Shown piece by piece: positions 1 to 11,962 of a DNA stretch of 11,962 nt. The DNA lies in IMG/VR virus record IMGVR_UViG_3300045988_013335, positions 1 through 11,962 of that record, one strand, 5' to 3'. The DNA comes from a virus. The notes beneath the pieces are model-generated. The model searched no databases, had not been told where the DNA came from, and saw only the letters and a list, made by a program, of their open reading frames with translations. Made by a program: the position numbers and the translations under genes. Numbering within the stretch: the first letter of the stretch is position 1; each line of letters begins with the position of its first letter.

Positions 1-216
1 GTATACAAATGACCCATTTTTAACGTTTCCCAACACACTTTTAACAGTTGTTAGCACAGTTTGGCACGCTTTTTGTTGTGAGCCGTGCCAACTGAGCCGA
101 TGAAACAAAGTTTAACAGGTCGTTAAGATAGTTTAACAAACGCATATAAAGATGCGACTTCGCCTTAGAAATTGCATATTTATGCGACTTTGTACCGATG
201 TATAATTATTCAGATT

Positions 217-307
217 AAGCCACGATGAGCCACCACCGCCACAGACCGCCACATATTTAGCTATGCTAAATACGCCACCATAGCCACAGAAGCCAAATGA
301 GCCACCT
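217..307. repeat. Phased GCCAC iteron-like array with central palindrome (left ITR copy)
   Basis: GCCAC starts at 219, 229, 238 and 248. An 8-bp-arm palindrome TATTTAGC-tat-GCTAAATA follows at 254-272. GCCAC then starts at 274, 283 and 301, with a GCCAA variant at 292. Spacing is 9-10 bp and all copies have the same orientation. Confidence 0.8.
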
Positions 308-317
308 ACAGGGCGTT

Positions 318-355
318 AAAAAAGACCCCGTGGGCAATAACACCTCACAGGGTCT
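318..355 (-). terminator. Intrinsic terminator of the late (structural) operon, located inside the left ITR
   Basis: The minus strand reads AGACCCTGTG-aggtgttattgcc-CACGGGGTCT followed by TTTTTTAAC. This is a 10-bp GC-rich stem with one U-G wobble plus a T6 tail. It begins 22 nt after the TAG stop (377-379) of the last gene. Confidence 0.75.
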
Positions 356-376
356 AATAAGGGCACAGGGCTTATT

Positions 377-2335
377 CTATAAGGTGAAGCCGTTGCGCAA
401 AATGTTTATAATAGTGTTAACATCGTCCATCAACATATTTGAAGTGTCTGCAAATTTGACGTTCACCAACTTTGTAAAGCCTACAACGTCTTTGACCTTA
501 GTCAGACGTGAAGAAGCGGTTTCAACGCCTGTGCTTGTGATGGTCTTCTTTTGCAAAATGATGTAAGGTGTCAGACCCATAAGATAAGTTGAATCGAACT
601 TTGAACCACCAAGCACTCTTACTTCTTGTTTCTGAGTTCTGAAAAGAACATCGGTACACGGTTCAACTTCTTTCGTATATACAATTCTGTCTTCACAGGT
701 CAACACATACATACCACCGCCACCAATTATGTTGACCCTCAGTTCAAGTTCAACGGTGTGCCCTATAAGGTCAACAGGCAACGTTTCAAGACCGATGAAC
801 GGCACAAACATATTCAAGTCTGTATCATAGTCAGCCGTGCTTTGTGTGACGTTTGGAATGTCAACAGAACCGAACGAAATCACCTTTGTATCAGAAGTTA
901 AGTTAAACACGTTTGTATCTACTTGGAAATTACCACACATCAGTTTTGACGTAGAACCTTTTTCAACAGGGAAGAAGAATCTTTTGACCCTGTTAACATA
1001 GTCGCCAAGGTCATAAGAAATGGGGTCTTCTTTCGTACTTGCCGAATCACCTGTGTATGGTACAAAACGAGCGGTGGCAAAGTCTTCAAGATTCTGTTCA
1101 TTCAACACATAAGCGTTGATAAAACCATATTTCTTTGTCGGGGTTGAAGTCGGTGTCGCTTCACCCTCAACTTCAATATACCAATCGTGTTCGATTGCTA
1201 TCTGCGGGGTTATTGTGCCTGTGGCGGTCAGCATATCGTCGCTTACCGTCATATATACCACACGACCACCTGTTAAACTGTTGTAGCCTGTTATTTTGCA
1301 CTTCTTAGCGTCATAGAATTTGTTTCCTGCATCAGCGTTCAAAGTGAATGTGACAGGCTCACCAACGAAACAGTACGTAGGCTTTTCAACAGGTGTGCAC
1401 CCCGATAAATAATAATCAATACGCAAAGCCTTTTTGGTTTCGCCTGTTACAACTACATCGTGTTTTAAATCAACGTCAGCCAACACCACAGAAGCGTTTG
1501 AAATAACGTTATCTTCATCTACAAGCGGTTTCACAACAACGTTGACAGGTACGGACACATTCTTGTTGCTTCCATCTTTGCCAACGTAGGCACAGGACAC
1601 GTTCAACATTACCTTTTTAGAAGACAGGTTAACAGTCACAGAAGAACCGTTCACGGTGTGTGAAATTAAAGTATCTGGAACTTTATTAATAACGGTCACG
1701 TCTGTAGGCTCAACGGCTTTGGTGTTACCGTCCAACGTAGCATAGCCACCATAAGAAGCGGTCGCAAGGGTGAATGTTGCAACGTTATCCGAAACGGTCA
1801 TATTTTCCGTGGTTGCATCTGCAAACGGGTCTTCGGGGTCTGCACCATAAGTTACGGTCGGCACACCGTCAAAGGTGAATCCGTTTTCACACGTCAACGT
1901 TATAACGGTATTGTCGCCCTGTACTTCTGTTTTATATGTGGTGTGTTGAACGTTGTTTGTGACTGCTAAGGGTTCAACAGGCGAACCACCGCCGGCATAA
2001 AGGGTGAATCTTGCGGTATCTGTAAACAGTGATGTTGGTTTGAATCGCCAAGAGATAAACGTTCCATCGCTTGTGATACCTGTCATACCGCCATTAATAA
2101 CGGTTTGGTCTTCATCAGCCGTTACCTTTTTGGCTGTTACGTTAAAGGTTTGTGGCGCACCGTTATAAGTAACTTCAAACGTACCTGTTTTCACGTTGTC
2201 TTCAAAAAAGCAACCGTTAACGGCTTTCGCTTTCATAGCGACCCAATCCGAACCATCGTTTGTGTATGTCGTGGGGTTATTTTCAACGCCTGTACACTTG
2301 TCAAAATTGTATATAATATCGTAAGTACTTGCCAT
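377..2335 (-). CDS. Tail protein: N-terminal beta-repeat (Ig-like or InlB-B-repeat-like) adhesin region fused to a phi29 gp9 (tail knob)-like C-terminal half. Probable receptor-binding tail knob.
   Basis: 652-aa ORF, last gene of the operon. The C-terminus ...FTKLVNVKFADTSNMLMDDVNTIINILRNGFTL resembles my recollection of the phi29 gp9 C-terminus (...DLQEIRTIFDNGITLW). The first ~400 aa are T/V/N/G-rich with recurring strand motifs (TFEVTYNG, VITLTCENGFTFDG, VATFTLATASYGG, PVTFTLNADAGNKF). The ATG overlaps the upstream stop (TAATG). Confidence 0.6.
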   Translation of the reverse strand: MASTYDIIYNFDKCTGVENNPTTYTNDGSDWVAMKAKAVNGCFFEDNVKTGTFEVTYNGAPQTFNVTAKKVTADEDQTVINGGMTGITSDGTFISWRFKPTSLFTDTARFTLYAGGGSPVEPLAVTNNVQHTTYKTEVQGDNTVITLTCENGFTFDGVPTVTYGADPEDPFADATTENMTVSDNVATFTLATASYGGYATLDGNTKAVEPTDVTVINKVPDTLISHTVNGSSVTVNLSSKKVMLNVSCAYVGKDGSNKNVSVPVNVVVKPLVDEDNVISNASVVLADVDLKHDVVVTGETKKALRIDYYLSGCTPVEKPTYCFVGEPVTFTLNADAGNKFYDAKKCKITGYNSLTGGRVVYMTVSDDMLTATGTITPQIAIEHDWYIEVEGEATPTSTPTKKYGFINAYVLNEQNLEDFATARFVPYTGDSASTKEDPISYDLGDYVNRVKRFFFPVEKGSTSKLMCGNFQVDTNVFNLTSDTKVISFGSVDIPNVTQSTADYDTDLNMFVPFIGLETLPVDLIGHTVELELRVNIIGGGGMYVLTCEDRIVYTKEVEPCTDVLFRTQKQEVRVLGGSKFDSTYLMGLTPYIILQKKTITSTGVETASSRLTKVKDVVGFTKLVNVKFADTSNMLMDDVNTIINILRNGFTL

Positions 2336-4969: not shown

Positions 4970-5974
4970 TTAAGTTTCTTTTTCTTCTTTTTCTTCTGTT
5001 TCAGAAGTTTCTTCTTTTTCTTCTGTTTCAGAAGTTTCTTCTTTTTCTTCTGTTTCGGTCGTTTCTTTGGTTTCTTCTGTTTCCTCAGTTTCAACCTTTT
5101 CGATGTCCTTAGACAACGCCAAGAAGTTTTCGTGTTCCAACTTCCAAGAAGAATTTAAATCCACGGTGATGTCAGTTCCGAACATTTCATTTACCTGTTT
5201 GATTGCGTCACGTCTGCTATTCAGCATATTTTCCACATAAGGCAAAAGCACGTCCACGTTCATTGAAACTTCACCAAGGTTCAAACGTTCACGCTTCATA
5301 TTATAGTTGGCGTTCAAGCCAAGTTCGTTGAGCATTGAACCCCTGTAATACTGTACGAGTTCAACCAGTTGTGTTATGTATTGACTGTTTGAAACGTTGG
5401 CGGTCTGCATTGATACGCCCTTGAAGAAACTGTTTTCACCGATTACTGAAAAGTCACCGTTGAGAATCTTTTTCAAGAACTCGTCTGCACTCTGTTTGGT
5501 CTTATCATCAGAAGCACTTATCAGCATAGTGATGCGTGTCAGAATTGAAGCTGTGTTCAACGAAATAAGACCGTCTGTGTACAGAACCGCAAATTTGCCG
5601 ATGACAGGCAGCAGGCTTTGACCGTTGGTGTCGTTCTTCATCAGAACACAATCAGAACCGATTCTGTACGTCTTGTTCAACTTTAACCAAGGGTTCGCCA
5701 CGATGTAATCAACAGGGCGACCGTATGCGTCACAATCGCCACCTGTAGAACCACCAAGGGCGTACAGGTCATTTCCTACCTTTGCTATAGCACAGTTTCC
5801 ACTTTCCTGTAACAGGCGTTCAAGTTCCACATGTGGAATAGTTTCGGGAAGACCATCGTACTTGAACATCGACTGAGTAATAGCCAAAGTATGTTCCATA
5901 AAAGACGTTACGGCAACGTCCTTTGTCTTCACCTGTGCTTGGTAGTGCGTATAGATATTATCTAATTTTTTCAT
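4970..5974 (-). CDS. Portal (connector / upper collar) protein, phi29 gp10-like, with acidic repeat C-terminal tail
   Basis: 334-aa ORF. [30 protein letters not shown] resembles phi29 gp10 [48 protein letters not shown] resembles [31 protein letters not shown] resembles INELYGLNVKVKF. These comparisons are from memory. Confidence 0.85.
   Translation of the reverse strand: [334 protein letters not shown]
4981..5057. repeat. 27-bp tandem repeat (~2.9 copies) encoding the acidic portal tail
   Basis: Full units GAAGTTTCTTCTTTTTCTTCTGTTTCA occur at 5004-5030 and 5031-5057 (one mismatch). A 23-nt partial copy lies at 4981-5003. On the minus strand these encode (S/T)ETEEKEET repeats. Confidence 0.9.
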
Positions 5975-6190: not shown

Positions 6191-6198
6191 CAAAGATA
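6191..6198 (-). promoter_or_regulatory. Late promoter -7 element (TATCTTTG), Bacteroidota type
   Basis: The minus strand reads CGTATCTTTGCA. It matches TAnnTTTG and lies 25 nt upstream of the ATG at 6165. The 12-mer is identical to the one at 11474-11485. The -33 region has only CTTG (6221-6224). Confidence 0.5.
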
Positions 6199-6217
6199 CG
6201 AATAAAAATTCGTATCT
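6194..6217 (-). terminator. Perfect 10-bp hairpin after the ATPase gene (possible terminator, overlapping the late promoter)
   Basis: The minus strand reads AGATACGAAT-tttt-ATTCGTATCT followed by TTGCAAAT. It lies 14 nt after the ATPase stop (6232-6234). The U-tail is weak, and the 3' arm forms part of the -7 box. Confidence 0.4.
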
Positions 6218-7360: not shown

Positions 7361-9553
7361 TTAATCTTTAAATTTGATACCCATTAAAAAGTTTAAATAC
7401 ATAACAGACAGCGAAAGTGAATAACCTGTTGCTTCAAGATGCACGCCCGAAAGTTCGTGAAATTCACCCTGTTCGCCTGTGTAGTCAGTTAACACGCCCT
7501 GTTGCTCATAGTCAATATAGGTGTGGATATTCTTGCCTGTAGCCTGTGGAGGTATCGCCAAATAGTTAGTGAATGCTTCAAAGATTCCGTCCTGTCCGTA
7601 AGTTTCAAGTAACCACGGGATAGCACTTTTCTTGTTCACACCGCTTACTGTCAAAGATACAGGATAACTTTTACCGCCAACGGTCAAAGCGTCTTCTTCT
7701 TCCATCATATAACGTTTTGCGCCAAGGGTCTTGAACCGACTGTAAACACCCTCAAAGTCCCAAACGCCCATCAACTTGTTAATGCCCTTTATGGTCTTTG
7801 GTTCAAACAGTTCAAAGTCTATCTTATGATATTTCGCAGCCTGTCTTAGCTTATATTCTACCATCGTGTTATATTCTTTGAAGTACTGTGCGTGTGCTTC
7901 ACCGTTCTGCAATTTAACGGAATCGGTGTCTGAATATATGTAATCGTCACCGCATTCGTAAATTCCTGTAAACAGGTTTCTTCTTGCATAAGCCGTTACA
8001 AACACACCCCAAGGGTAAAACAGGAATCGGTTTCGACTGCCGTTGTACTTCACCAAGGTTTCATTTATCTTGTCCGATGTAAGGTGTAAAACATCCCATT
8101 CACCGTTATAAGTAAATTCGTCACGTAGTGGATTCGTCACACACATACCGTAACAACTGTTTAACATTTCCTTGAAATTTAAATATTCCACTTCTTTTCC
8201 TTTTACGCCCTTTAACGTTGTCTTGTTGGCATACAGGTGAAGAATAGACTTTACGAACTCTGTGGGCAAATACGCCTTTTTATAGCACCACATATCGACC
8301 ACCTTTTCATCTTCCCAAGTGTAGAACATTTTAAACACGTTATAGTCAACGTTCGTGATGGTAGTCACTACCTTGTCAGCCGAAAAGACACGACCGTTAT
8401 TTTCCACTACGTTTTCTTTGTAGAAGCACTTAGAAACAGACAAGGGCGTGTCCTGTACCTGTGAACTCATTATCTTTGTAAATTCGATGTCGAAGATACA
8501 ACAGTAAGCAGACAGGAAAAATTCAAATTGCTTCTTACTTTTTACCTGTACGTGTACGCCCGAACTCATCGGGAACTGTTCTGCAACCATCACATAAGGA
8601 TAACTGCTTGTGAAATCGTAACTGCTGACGTTCGTCATAACATCGTCTGTGTGGTTCGCATTTGCGTGTGTGAAGCCACCACTAAAAGCCCTTTGCAACG
8701 TGTTGAACTCGTCAACACCGCTTATGTTTAGGTCGTGAATCGTGTTTATATAAGACCAATTTTGCACGGTCTTCCCGAACTCGTCTTCACAGTACAGACA
8801 ATGTTTGCGACAATACTTTCTCACAAAGCCTGTTTTGGTAATCGGCAAATGTGTGATTCCCTTATAACGTTCTATCATTTCCTGTATGTAGCACATCACT
8901 ACTTTTACGTCATTAAGGCAATAGCCCATTTCTTTTTCTGTTAGCGGTGTCTTACTGTGACGTAACAGGGAATAATCAAGATCGCCCACCATCTTTTCAC
9001 ATTTGTACTTCATAAGTTGACCGCCCAACTTTGCCAAGGAATAACCCGACAATAGATAGCTGCAACGAAATTCGATACCCGATTCCGTGATAGCGTAAAT
9101 CGGTTTTCTTAGGTCTATTGAAAATACTTTGTTCCACGTGAAACGTTGTCTGATAAATTGGAACTCATACGCCAAGTTATGAACGTACACTATCAAACGC
9201 CTGTTTTCTGATAGCTGCAAGTAGTCAGAAATCGTTTCCATCATTTCGGTAAACTCTTCCCAAGTACGACCGACTACACAATAACCGTTTATTCCAAATT
9301 GCCAAACATACATACAGGAACACTTTTCCAACTTCACGCCTAATTTGGTGTATTGCTCATAGGACAGATATTCGTCACCGTTCTTGTAGAATGAAGTGGT
9401 TTCTATGTCAAAGCATACAGGAATATCAAAGAACTTTTGTTTTTTGTTGTTTCCACGCAAACATGATTCATCGACCGCCAAATTAAGGACGGTTATTATT
9501 TCTTGGGGTGAATAGACTTCACCGTGCAAACAAAAATTCTTTTTCTTTTTCAT
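7361..9553 (-). CDS. Protein-primed family-B DNA polymerase
   Basis: 730-aa ORF. Motifs: ExoI FDIETT (D48, E50); ExoII HNLAYEF (N126); ExoIII YCLNDV (Y211, D215); motif A YDFTSSYP (D313); motif B KEMLNSCYG (K461); motif C YSDTDS (D542, D544; nt 7919-7936); KxY GAKRY (K613). The start overlaps the upstream stop (ATGA). Confidence 0.93.
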   Translation of the reverse strand: MKKKKNFCLHGEVYSPQEIITVLNLAVDESCLRGNNKKQKFFDIPVCFDIETTSFYKNGDEYLSYEQYTKLGVKLEKCSCMYVWQFGINGYCVVGRTWEEFTEMMETISDYLQLSENRRLIVYVHNLAYEFQFIRQRFTWNKVFSIDLRKPIYAITESGIEFRCSYLLSGYSLAKLGGQLMKYKCEKMVGDLDYSLLRHSKTPLTEKEMGYCLNDVKVVMCYIQEMIERYKGITHLPITKTGFVRKYCRKHCLYCEDEFGKTVQNWSYINTIHDLNISGVDEFNTLQRAFSGGFTHANANHTDDVMTNVSSYDFTSSYPYVMVAEQFPMSSGVHVQVKSKKQFEFFLSAYCCIFDIEFTKIMSSQVQDTPLSVSKCFYKENVVENNGRVFSADKVVTTITNVDYNVFKMFYTWEDEKVVDMWCYKKAYLPTEFVKSILHLYANKTTLKGVKGKEVEYLNFKEMLNSCYGMCVTNPLRDEFTYNGEWDVLHLTSDKINETLVKYNGSRNRFLFYPWGVFVTAYARRNLFTGIYECGDDYIYSDTDSVKLQNGEAHAQYFKEYNTMVEYKLRQAAKYHKIDFELFEPKTIKGINKLMGVWDFEGVYSRFKTLGAKRYMMEEEDALTVGGKSYPVSLTVSGVNKKSAIPWLLETYGQDGIFEAFTNYLAIPPQATGKNIHTYIDYEQQGVLTDYTGEQGEFHELSGVHLEATGYSLSLSVMYLNFLMGIKFKD

Positions 9554-10645: not shown

Positions 10646-10813
10646 TTACTCACTCACATTTTCAGATTCGATTCGGTCTATCAACCATTTACGGAATCTG
10701 TTCACCTTGATAACGGCTTTGTCATCGTTGCACATTTCTTTGGTCTGTAGCAGACCATTAAGAGCGGTCAAAGCGTTAAACAGGTTTTCTTGATAATCGT
10801 TTCTTTCTTCCAT
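10646..10813 (-). CDS. Small hypothetical early protein (55 aa), absent from the supplied ORF track
   Basis: My translation is MEERNDYQENLFNALTALNGLLQTKEMCNDDKAVIKVNRFRKWLIDRIESENVSE, with a TAA stop at 10646-10648. Its ATG overlaps the TGA of the upstream ORF by 1 nt (TGATG). It fills an otherwise unexplained 200-nt gap in a densely packed genome. Confidence 0.5.
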   Translation of the reverse strand: MEERNDYQENLFNALTALNGLLQTKEMCNDDKAVIKVNRFRKWLIDRIESENVSE

Positions 10814-11010
10814 CACTTTTGAAACTTAATGTAACCACCGTGATTTACTACGGTGGTGTCCGTTGTTACTATTACTGTGCGCCCTTTTGCTTCCACGTTC
10901 TGTGAAGTGGTGCAAGAACCAAAGACGCTAATTACTACAAAGCAGATAACCGTCCAAAGGACAAATGCACAGGTGGATTCTATCACCCCAATCTTTTCTT
11001 TTCTATCCAT
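10813..11010 (-). CDS. Small predicted lipoprotein (early gene)
   Basis: 65-aa ORF with a charged N-region (MDRKEK), a hydrophobic core (CAFVLWTVICFVVISVF) and a lipobox-like F-G-S-Cys33. The mature part is a 33-aa T/V-rich peptide. Confidence 0.5.
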   Translation of the reverse strand: MDRKEKIGVIESTCAFVLWTVICFVVISVFGSCTTSQNVEAKGRTVIVTTDTTVVNHGGYIKFQK

Positions 11011-11302
11011 CGTACTTACTTTTATGTTTGATAAACTCAGACATCAGTCTGTTTTCTGATAAGAAATCAAGAACCTGTGTAAACTCATCTTGAAGTTTAT
11101 TCACCAGCAGACCATCTTTCTTATCTTGCATCAGAACATCTTGAACCACGATTCTTGCTTCTAAAACCGTATTATTTACGGCATTTAACAGGTTCTTTTG
11201 TTCTGTGTTCAAGCCCTGTGCAATAATGTCCATATCGTCACAGGCTCTGTCCAATACTTGAAGCAACATCAACAATGCTTCTTCTTTCTTCTTTGTGTCC
11301 AT
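11003..11302 (-). CDS. Hypothetical early protein (helical, 99 aa), first gene of the early operon
   Basis: ORF with coding-like composition. It overlaps the next gene by 8 nt. I recognise no motif. Confidence 0.6.
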   Translation of the reverse strand: MDTKKKEEALLMLLQVLDRACDDMDIIAQGLNTEQKNLLNAVNNTVLEARIVVQDVLMQDKKDGLLVNKLQDEFTQVLDFLSENRLMSEFIKHKSKYDG

Positions 11303-11475: not shown

Positions 11476-11507
11476 CAAAGATACGGCGATTTTTTGAACC
11501 TACCAAA
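11476..11507 (-). promoter_or_regulatory. Early promoter, Bacteroidota type (-33 TTTG / -7 TATCTTTG)
   Basis: On the minus strand, TTTG (11507-11504) is followed by a 20-nt spacer and then TATCTTTG (11483-11476). This fits the TTTG-N19-21-TAnnTTTG consensus of Bacteroides sigma-ABfr promoters. The core 12-mer is identical to the one at 6189-6200. GGCGATTTTTT copies at 11485-11495 and 11533-11543 bracket the -33 element. Confidence 0.6.
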
Positions 11508-11607
11508 TTATTTTTGTTAAAAAGTCTTAATTGGCGATTTTTTCTTTTTTTCTCTGTTTTTTGCGCTTTTCGGCTTCACCTTATAGAATAAGCCCTGTGC
11601 CCTTATT

Positions 11608-11645
11608 AGACCCTGTGAGGTGTTATTGCCCACGGGGTCTTTTTT
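11608..11645 (+). terminator. Mirror copy of the ITR terminator, facing outward on the plus strand
   Basis: Same hairpin and T6 tail, read on the plus strand in the right ITR. It would stop any transcript heading toward the right terminus. Whether it is used is unknown. Confidence 0.45.
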
Positions 11646-11655
11646 AACGCCCTGT

Positions 11656-11746
11656 AGGTGGCTCATTTGGCTTCTGTGGCTATGGTGGCGTATTTAGCAT
11701 AGCTAAATATGTGGCGGTCTGTGGCGGTGGTGGCTCATCGTGGCTT
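11656..11746. repeat. Phased GTGGC iteron-like array with central palindrome (right ITR copy)
   Basis: Mirror image of 217-307 inside the right ITR. Confidence 0.8.
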
Positions 11747-11962
11747 AATCTGAATAATTATACATCGGTACAAAGTCGCATAAATATGCAATTTCTAAGG
11801 CGAAGTCGCATCTTTATATGCGTTTGTTAAACTATCTTAACGACCTGTTAAACTTTGTTTCATCGGCTCAGTTGGCACGGCTCACAACAAAAAGCGTGCC
11901 AAACTGTGCTAACAACTGTTAAAAGTGTGTTGGGAAACGTTAAAAATGGGTCATTTGTATAC

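Follow-up and report, generated by a model that had tools for sequence, protein, structure and literature searches.

What is a cluster of short direct repeats with the core GCCAC for, when it lies inside both inverted terminal repeats (ITRs) of a small linear phage genome? The window, that is, the whole stretch of DNA analysed (11,962 bp), is a complete virus record bearing ITRs. Its genes run on the minus strand throughout, and the identified products comprise a phi29-type major capsid protein, a connector, a gp16 packaging ATPase, a protein-primed family-B polymerase (pPolB), a holin, and a DUF5675 protein; a 211-aa candidate terminal protein (TP) is encoded directly upstream of the polymerase gene. 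Four small orphan early genes (e99, e65, e56, and e116, of 99, 65, 56, and 116 aa) occupy the right end. Upstream of them, about 150 bp inside the right-end array, is an early promoter of the Bacteroidota type (TTTG-N20-TATCTTTG; 11476-11507, minus strand). A near-identity search of GenBank phages returned no match, and the nearest cultured relatives belong to the Astrithrvirus group (roughly 11.5 kb; polymerase about 46% identical).

Two sets of relatives were compared with the window. Clade 1 consists of 32 IMG/VR genomes, all but a few of them from a single metagenome, with polymerase identities of 90-99%. Clade 2, the sister clade, consists of 48 genomes from a profile search, with polymerases 68-69% identical, together with related contigs binned in gut metagenome-assembled genomes (MAGs); over the whole set, the identities are 66-69%.

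Position and architecture of the repeats

The left ITR (1-392, plus strand) and the right ITR (11571-11962, minus strand) form a perfect 392-bp inverted repeat. In three clade-1 contigs and one clade-2 contig (L008, L007, L035, and L167), an Illumina adapter (...CTCTTCCGATCT or ...GCTCTTCCGATCT) directly abuts AAAGGTA, the adapter joining AAAGGTATAC or AAAGGTACAC (L008:1-35, L007:1-33, L035:1-58, and L167:1-45). These junctions place the physical end at 5'-AAAG followed by window base 1, so that the window is without the terminal 4 nt. The array had been estimated to lie about 220 bp from the end; this is nearly correct, the distance from the true end being about 223 bp. The terminus resembles that of phi29 (5'-AAAGTA) in its reiterated AAA and would fit sliding-back initiation.

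From the end inward, the ITR is composed of a terminal core, GCATA..TATGC-GACTT repeats, a hypervariable outer half-array, a palindrome, an inner half-array, a terminator, and the end of the tail gene. The terminal core (1-95) contains TTTAACA repeats, TTTCCCAAC, and the inverted repeat TTGGCACG (61-68)/CGTGCCAA (85-92). These roughly 95 bp are nearly invariant between clades 1 and 2, despite polymerases that are 69% identical, and the core is likely the minimal origin. An intrinsic terminator, directed outward and at the left end serving the late operon (318-354, minus strand; copy at 11609-11645), is predicted from the sequence and the minus-strand fold, with stem arms at 346-354 and 324-332 followed by a T-run. 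The 652-aa tail gene has its stop codon at 377-379 and its last five codons inside the ITR.

Several smaller elements were noted in the terminal part of the ITR. The invariant block TTGGCACGCTTTTTG(C/T)T, at 61-92 in the window, matches the sigma54 -24/-12 consensus (TGGCACG-N4-TTGC) and points inward; the sigma54-like element itself, TGGCACG-N4-TTG(C/T), is at 62-77, and its -12 C is replaced by T in 14 of 46 genomes. The right half of CGTGCCAA, the inverted-repeat partner of TTGGCACG, is an array-like GCCA(A/C) unit. Inward of the terminal core and before the array, a small palindrome that is followed by GCGACTT occurs as a direct repeat (GCATATAAAGATGCGACTT and GCATATTTATGCGACTT, at 142-160 and 174-190).

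The array consists of two half-arrays in the same orientation. The outer one (219-252, plus strand), in the hypervariable part of the ITR, has four GCCAC copies, starting at 219, 229, 238, and 248, and its copy number varies among relatives; the inner one (274-305, plus strand), in a conserved part, has GCCAC at 274, 283, and 301 and the variant GCCAA at 292. All these positions agree with those listed in a sequence-only reading, as does the mirrored array in the right ITR (11658-11744), where GTGGC occurs at 11658-11740. Start-to-start spacings in the window are 10, 9, and 10 bp, then 26 bp across the palindrome, then 9, 9, and 9 bp.

The array is not a product of chance. Sixteen GCCAC or GTGGC pentamers occur over about 11.2 kb of background on both strands, which predicts 0.06 per 87 bp, and seven were observed; outside the ITRs, 8 GCCAC are balanced by 8 GTGGC, with neither enrichment nor orientation bias. 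Base composition, which had been named as a possible source of the periodicity, does not account for the cluster: 300 dinucleotide shuffles of the genome gave at most 5 copies of any 5-mer per 90 bp, and 5,000 shuffles of region 200-320 gave at most 4 copies of GCCAC. Elsewhere in the genome, only one 5-mer cluster is comparable, and it is part of a coding sequence, as a repeat in the 3' end of the connector gene. For the array, a coding repeat is ruled out, as the 10- and 11-bp spacings disrupt every frame. The only open reading frame here (297-566, plus strand) had been dismissed as an implausible shadow, and rightly so: it lies antisense to the 3' end of the 652-aa tail gene, with which it overlaps, it matches no family, and its ATG is missing in relatives, which read ...aataaGCCAC. 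A search for known RNAs, including packaging RNA (pRNA), gave no Rfam match above noise, and no tRNA was found. DnaA boxes were rejected by inspection; G-C-C-A-C is invariant, while a DnaA box needs T where the G stands and accepts any base next.

Between the half-arrays lies the perfect palindrome TATTTAGC-tat-GCTAAATA (254-272; mirror copy at 11691-11709), whose 8-bp arms were as first described and which occurs nowhere else in the window. It fills about two 9-bp units, so that the flanking GCCAC copies are 26-28 bp apart and the register is preserved. Among relatives, the arms are TATTTAGC/GCTAAATA, TATGTAGC/GCTACATA, or (T)ATGTAAC/GTTACAT(A), and the loop is 3-4 nt. Two of the eight arm pairs co-vary on both sides, with no one-sided change, and 98.4% of cells are paired. 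Such covariation would fit a hairpin or a symmetric operator alike. Subclades 1a and 1c have the palindrome; subclade 1b does not, and its array is contiguous.

Register and conservation in clade 1

Conservation of the motif in related genomes had been proposed as a check on its function, and the array passed it: every clade-1 genome whose contig keeps that part of the ITR has the array, in all three subclades (1a, 1b, and 1c), with ITRs that are just 75-85% identical to those of the window and contain many indels. These genomes have 3-8 exact GCCAC cores. Over 28 related arrays, adjacent cores are 9 bp apart in 49 of 65 pairs, 10 bp in nine, and 11 bp in seven, and the longer gaps (18-19, 26-28, and 35-38 bp) fall near multiples of 9. 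Units that have degenerated in register are mostly one-mismatch variants (GCCAA, GCCGC, and TCCAC). The 5-bp core stays constant, while the spacers between neighbouring exact cores come in 22 versions over 19 distinct arrays. Conservation of core and register alongside drifting spacers argues against a neutral slippage tract. Block duplications still change the copy number, and the two ends of a single genome can come to differ in this way (37 bp in L017 and 22 bp in L033).

These counts change the picture of the helical geometry. The 9-10-bp spacing reported for the window is accurate, but its equation with about one helical turn is not, since the dominant period is 9 bp rather than 10.5 bp. 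Same-face phasing must accordingly be given up: a 9-bp period on B-DNA rotates successive sites by about -51 degrees, and seven units complete one turn. Proteins that contact a single face of the helix seldom follow such a period, a point that counts against the docking of a protein on the array.

The array is positioned from its inner side. The distance from the last GCCAC to the terminator stem is 25 bp in most genomes, becomes 34, 43, or 52 bp (25 + 9n) where terminal units are degenerate, and is 22-24 bp in three contigs. The distance from the first GCCAC to the physical end, by comparison, ranges from 191 to 396 bp. The fixed terminator distance (25 bp + 9n) against the variable end distance indicates that the array is anchored to the inner side of the ITR, and it probably lies outside the minimal protein-primed origin.

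Other repeats share the region. Besides the array, the clade-1 slot between the terminal core and the early-promoter block contains the terminator and repeats of further families, among them GCCTGACG and TGCAGC, which counts against reading the slot as a docking site alone. The motif (A/T)GCAGC occurs in the same 9-bp register as GCCAC (L005:90-150, L028:360-395, L034:325-365, and L030:318-347), where it either alternates with GCCAC (an 18-bp unit repeated three times in L005) or precedes it. In subclade 1b, the stretch from the terminal core to the array has additional families (GCCTGACG, GATGTG, and GGGTGT) as well as GTGGCAC copies in inverted orientation.

Exchange with parS in clade 2 and candidate binding proteins

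No GCCAC array was found in the 48 clade-2 genomes. These phages have the same terminal core and a homologous early-promoter block flanking the slot; the early promoter of the window is homologous to the one that lies within the clade-2 ITR. Their slot holds 1-5 copies per ITR of the box TGTTTCACGTG(G/A)AAC(A/G), spaced 27-39 bp apart and situated 90-115 bp upstream of the ITR-borne early promoter. The boxes are canonical chromosomal parS sites (TGTTTCACGTGAAACA) with 0-2 mismatches (L159-L206, L208-L210, and L214), parS being the chromosomal centromere of Bacteroidota. In most clade-2 phages, a further single parS, in many cases a perfect one, lies internally between the ATPase and holin genes, where a longer GGGG...CCCC inverted repeat encloses it (examples of ITR and internal sites in L161 are at 150-230, 5080-5095, and 11945-12025). 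The ParB-parS palindrome is thus a feature of clade-2 ITRs, whereas a search for the 16-bp palindrome TGTTNCACGTGAAACA found no ITR match in the window or in any of 33 clade-1 genomes. Across about 80 genomes, the array and ITR parS are mutually exclusive. No earlier description of parS in the ITRs of a phage turned up in a literature search. A shared slot is not proof that the array functions as parS does.

Two features of the window resemble parS in sequence or in position. Inside the polymerase gene, the near-parS CGTTTCACGTGGAACA (9130-9145), which encodes RFTWNK, differs from the clade-2 box by 1 mismatch; it is exact in 26 of the 33 clade-1 genomes and one base off in the rest, and the chance expectation of a parS match with at most 2 mismatches in 12 kb is about 0.003. 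No evidence of selection at the DNA level on 9130-9145 was found. In the ATPase/holin intergenic region, the same intergenic position as the internal parS of the sister clade, a perfect hairpin with 10-bp arms (AGATACGAAT-tttt-ATTCGTATCT; 6191-6217, minus strand) overlaps a TATCTTTG -7 box.

The 116-aa and 99-aa early proteins had been suggested as binders of the array. The former does not fit, since e116 is 59-66% identical in clade 2, which is without the array; it has 662 homologs, all unnamed, in clusters of up to 1,700 member sequences. For the 99-aa protein, the evidence is divided. The e99 gene (11003-11302, minus strand) is present in 32 of 32 clade-1 loci and 0 of 48 clade-2 loci, and its product is the sole soluble phage protein whose presence tracks the array; e65 is likewise absent from clade 2, and e56 and e116 are common to both clades. 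Against e99, the protein is acidic (pI 4.8), its AlphaFold2 model is all-helical (pLDDT 79), and no DNA-binding fold was matched. The e56 model is a helical hairpin (pLDDT 86). Foldseek comparison of both models with PDB and BFVD gave nothing at E below 0.3, HMM searches with both proteins against PDB, Pfam, and PHROGs gave no match, and neither model matched a DNA-binding fold or had an N-terminal strand. In hhalign comparisons of e116, e99, and e56 profiles with phi29 p6, and of e116 with p5, probabilities were below 1%. We therefore regard e99 as a weak candidate for the array binder.

The 65-aa product of e65 (10813-11010, minus strand) has a lipoprotein-like signal (…VFGSC), and homologs are found in a third clade (L214 and L219), which carries parS. 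It may be a superinfection-exclusion lipoprotein.

The host was approached through the MAGs. Assignment from MAG bins was rejected, as the labels conflict (Gastranaerophilales, Prevotella, Alistipes, and Clostridia). With at most 1 mismatch, parS was present in 36 of 41 sampled genomes from the phylum of a Prevotella-labelled MAG and in none of the controls; in the five phage-bearing MAGs searched, most parS matches come from the phage contigs. A gut member of the Bacteroidota that forms no spores is the probable host. Searches for (GCCACN4)x3 in 5 MAGs that include contigs of related phages, and likewise in 401 genomes from the candidate host phylum, yielded coding-like matches at control level only; with no excess of the array in those 401 genomes, no host regulon is visible. 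A search of IMG/VR for (GCCACN4)x4 was uninformative, giving more than 120 unrelated matches, none with a homolog of the core proteins of this phage.

A docking site for a sequence-specific protein and its alternatives

The array withstood both the comparison with relatives and the shuffles, and the original suggestion of a protein-binding platform is still the best reading of it. On the strength of the constant core and strict register, it is likely that a protein binds the array as double-stranded DNA. More specifically, we propose, with a probability of about one half, that a sequence-specific protein docks on the array, which would then be a cis-acting module comparable to parS or 0A boxes and not part of the origin. 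The closest known arrangement is that of phi29, in which five parS sites are used with the host Spo0J and four consecutive Spo0A (0A) boxes at both origins block the p6 complex (PMC2731898). Both are TP-primed viruses with pPolB, and both have clusters of short boxes near the two ends, consecutive as in the 0A type of host-regulator site. The phi29 boxes are bound by a non-replication protein that governs the fate of the genome, and by analogy the array probably serves a like role. The differences are that the motif is GCCAC rather than TGTCGAA or parS, that it is present in 4-8 or more copies with a 9-bp period, and that it lies 190-400 bp from the end, inside a long ITR. Taken together, parS in the clade-2 slot and the host-site clusters of phi29 favour, as the leading functional reading of the slot, a role akin to that of a centromere or a host-factor site, a possibility absent from the sequence-only reading.

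Plasmid centromeres built of direct repeats offer a further comparison. Those of R1 (parC/ParR), TP228 (parH/ParG), pSM19035 (omega heptads), and R388 (stbS/StbA) consist of at least four short boxes in the same orientation with a fixed sub- or near-helical period, sometimes as two sets flanking a core; the number of boxes varies, and the bound protein forms a helical coat on the DNA. The array likewise has at least four boxes in one orientation at a fixed period (4-8 exact cores per ITR, 9 bp). It differs in lying in the ITR of a linear phage genome, and no open reading frame of the window matched a ribbon-helix-helix, ParA, or ParM family.

An origin-organising complex was the function to which the sequence-only reading had inclined, with a phage early protein coating both ends and activating protein-primed initiation in the manner of phi29 p6 or of iterons. 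The p6 protein is a real precedent for an end-coating activator, and the complex proposed here would likewise be a multimeric protein-DNA assembly near both ends of a phi29-type genome; the array lies inside the ITR, hence at both origins, its direct repeats share a conserved core, and e99 is specific to the array-bearing clade. But p6 binds without regard to sequence, at intervals of 24 bp, and starts its complex no farther than about 125 bp from the ends, whereas the GCCAC motif is sequence-specific with a 9-bp period and keeps a fixed distance on its inner side, not from the DNA end (191-396 bp). No p6 or p5 homolog was found, e99 is acidic and helical without a DNA-binding fold, and clade 2, with the same terminal core and homologous TP and polymerase, has no array. 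Iterons of plasmids and lambdoid phages, which are also directly repeated sites at an origin region, are 17- to 22-bp units spaced by roughly 22 bp (about two helical turns) and recruit a Rep or O initiator; the unit of the array is a 9-bp one, with 5 bp of core and 4 bp of spacer, and no Rep family was matched in a genome made up of TP, pPolB, structural, and lysis genes plus the four small orphans. We consider a p6-like or iteron-like role unlikely. A packaging signal is also suggested by position, since the adenovirus A-repeats (TTTGN8CG) lie 200-380 bp from a TP-capped end and the array, too, is a set of several short phased repeats, subterminal and a few hundred base pairs (some 200-400 bp) from such an end; a gp16-type ATPase or a partner could read it, as a phi29-type ATPase and connector are present and no pRNA was detected. 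The A-repeats, however, lie outside the ITR, at one end only, have another consensus, and are read by viral packaging proteins without a counterpart here. Packaging of the phi29 type depends on recognition of TP-DNA and not of a sequence signal, the array has no set distance from the end, and clade-2 ATPases are 71-73% identical, yet the array is missing there, all of which makes a packaging signal very unlikely.

Three further explanations dispense with a docking protein on duplex DNA or with function altogether. The GCCAC strand is strongly richer in C than in G, and the C-rich, G-poor (GCCACNNNN)n strand with its hairpin could act as RNA, as a protein-binding or Rho-loading leader of an inward transcript, or as a hairpin in the displaced strand during replication. 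The co-varying palindrome arms with no one-sided intermediates, the 3- to 4-nt loop, and the inward-pointing sigma54-like element at 62-77 would suit such an element. Its transcription is difficult to arrange, with no Bacteroidota-type promoter upstream within the ITR, the -12 C of the sigma54-like element replaced by T in 14 of 46 genomes, and the array lying beyond the intrinsic terminator for outward transcripts; in addition, the plus-strand fold is no better than that of shuffles (z = -1.1) and no Rfam family matches, so that an RNA or single-stranded role appears quite unlikely. The array could alternatively be a functionless by-product, a slippage-prone, microsatellite-like tract in a tolerant non-coding region that is homogenised between the ends. 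Block duplication that changes copy number, even between the ends of one genome, and hypervariable surroundings rich in other short repeats are what such a tract would produce; cores identical across 22 different spacers, a register that persists across degenerate units and the palindrome, and presence in all three subclades are not, and this explanation is very unlikely too, if anything more so than a packaging signal. The least probable is Chi-like end protection, in which GTGGC on the 3'-ending strand, toward each end, would attenuate a nuclease of the RecBCD/AddAB type that enters there. In favour of this, the motif is short and asymmetric, has its G/T-rich sequence on the strand that Chi would need, and is constant in orientation to the end, but Chi has no need of a strict 9-bp register, the 8 GCCAC and 8 GTGGC outside the ITRs show neither enrichment nor bias, and TP-capped ends are poor substrates for such nucleases.

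If the array is a docking module for a sequence-specific protein, its variable subterminal position in the ITR, between the conserved terminal origin core and the early-promoter block, would allow the following scheme. Protomers would bind head to tail, one per 5-bp core, every 9 bp, and 4-8 or more copies would give a short protein coat that follows a left-handed spiral over 40-130 bp of DNA; in most lineages, the co-varying palindrome with 8-bp arms would interrupt or nucleate this coat. The partner to which both genome ends would thereby be tied could come from the host or be a phage protein with a new fold, and the outcome of such tethering might be maintenance or segregation, or silencing of replication and early transcription. 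A more speculative extension, which we put forward tentatively and think improbable as it stands, is that the ITR slot is an exchangeable hitch-hiking module. Clade 2 would use host parS/ParB, and clade 1 would use GCCAC with a different centromere-binding or silencing protein, and with either one a linear, TP-capped genome that is nominally virulent could be maintained and segregated as an episome (a carrier state) in dividing Bacteroidota. If true, this would correspond, in hosts that form no spores, to the spore entrapment of phi29.

Gut metagenomes are rich in small phi29-like phages, which are assumed to be strictly lytic. The comparison of the two clades suggests that these phages may couple their genome ends to host DNA-organising proteins, and such coupling would bear on carrier states, on gut phage persistence, and on the control of protein-primed linear replicons. 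The array also offers a defined 90-bp probe for fishing out a DNA-binding protein, whose recognition of direct repeats at 9 bp would be an unusual mode.

Short repeats near the ends were also seen in more distant genomes. In the Salmonella phage Astrid (L001:40-85), a 6-bp periodicity in CGATAACGGTAACGAGGGCGAGGGCTAGGGTTCGG (autocorrelation, 0.59-0.62) lies inside an 84-bp ITR; none was seen in DU_PP_III or Phanie. In a more distant relative with a polymerase 48% identical, whose contig is binned with a Clostridia MAG (L216:140-200), five tandem 11-bp repeats (CTGGGGAACTT) are located near the contig end, directly upstream of a TTGACA-type promoter.
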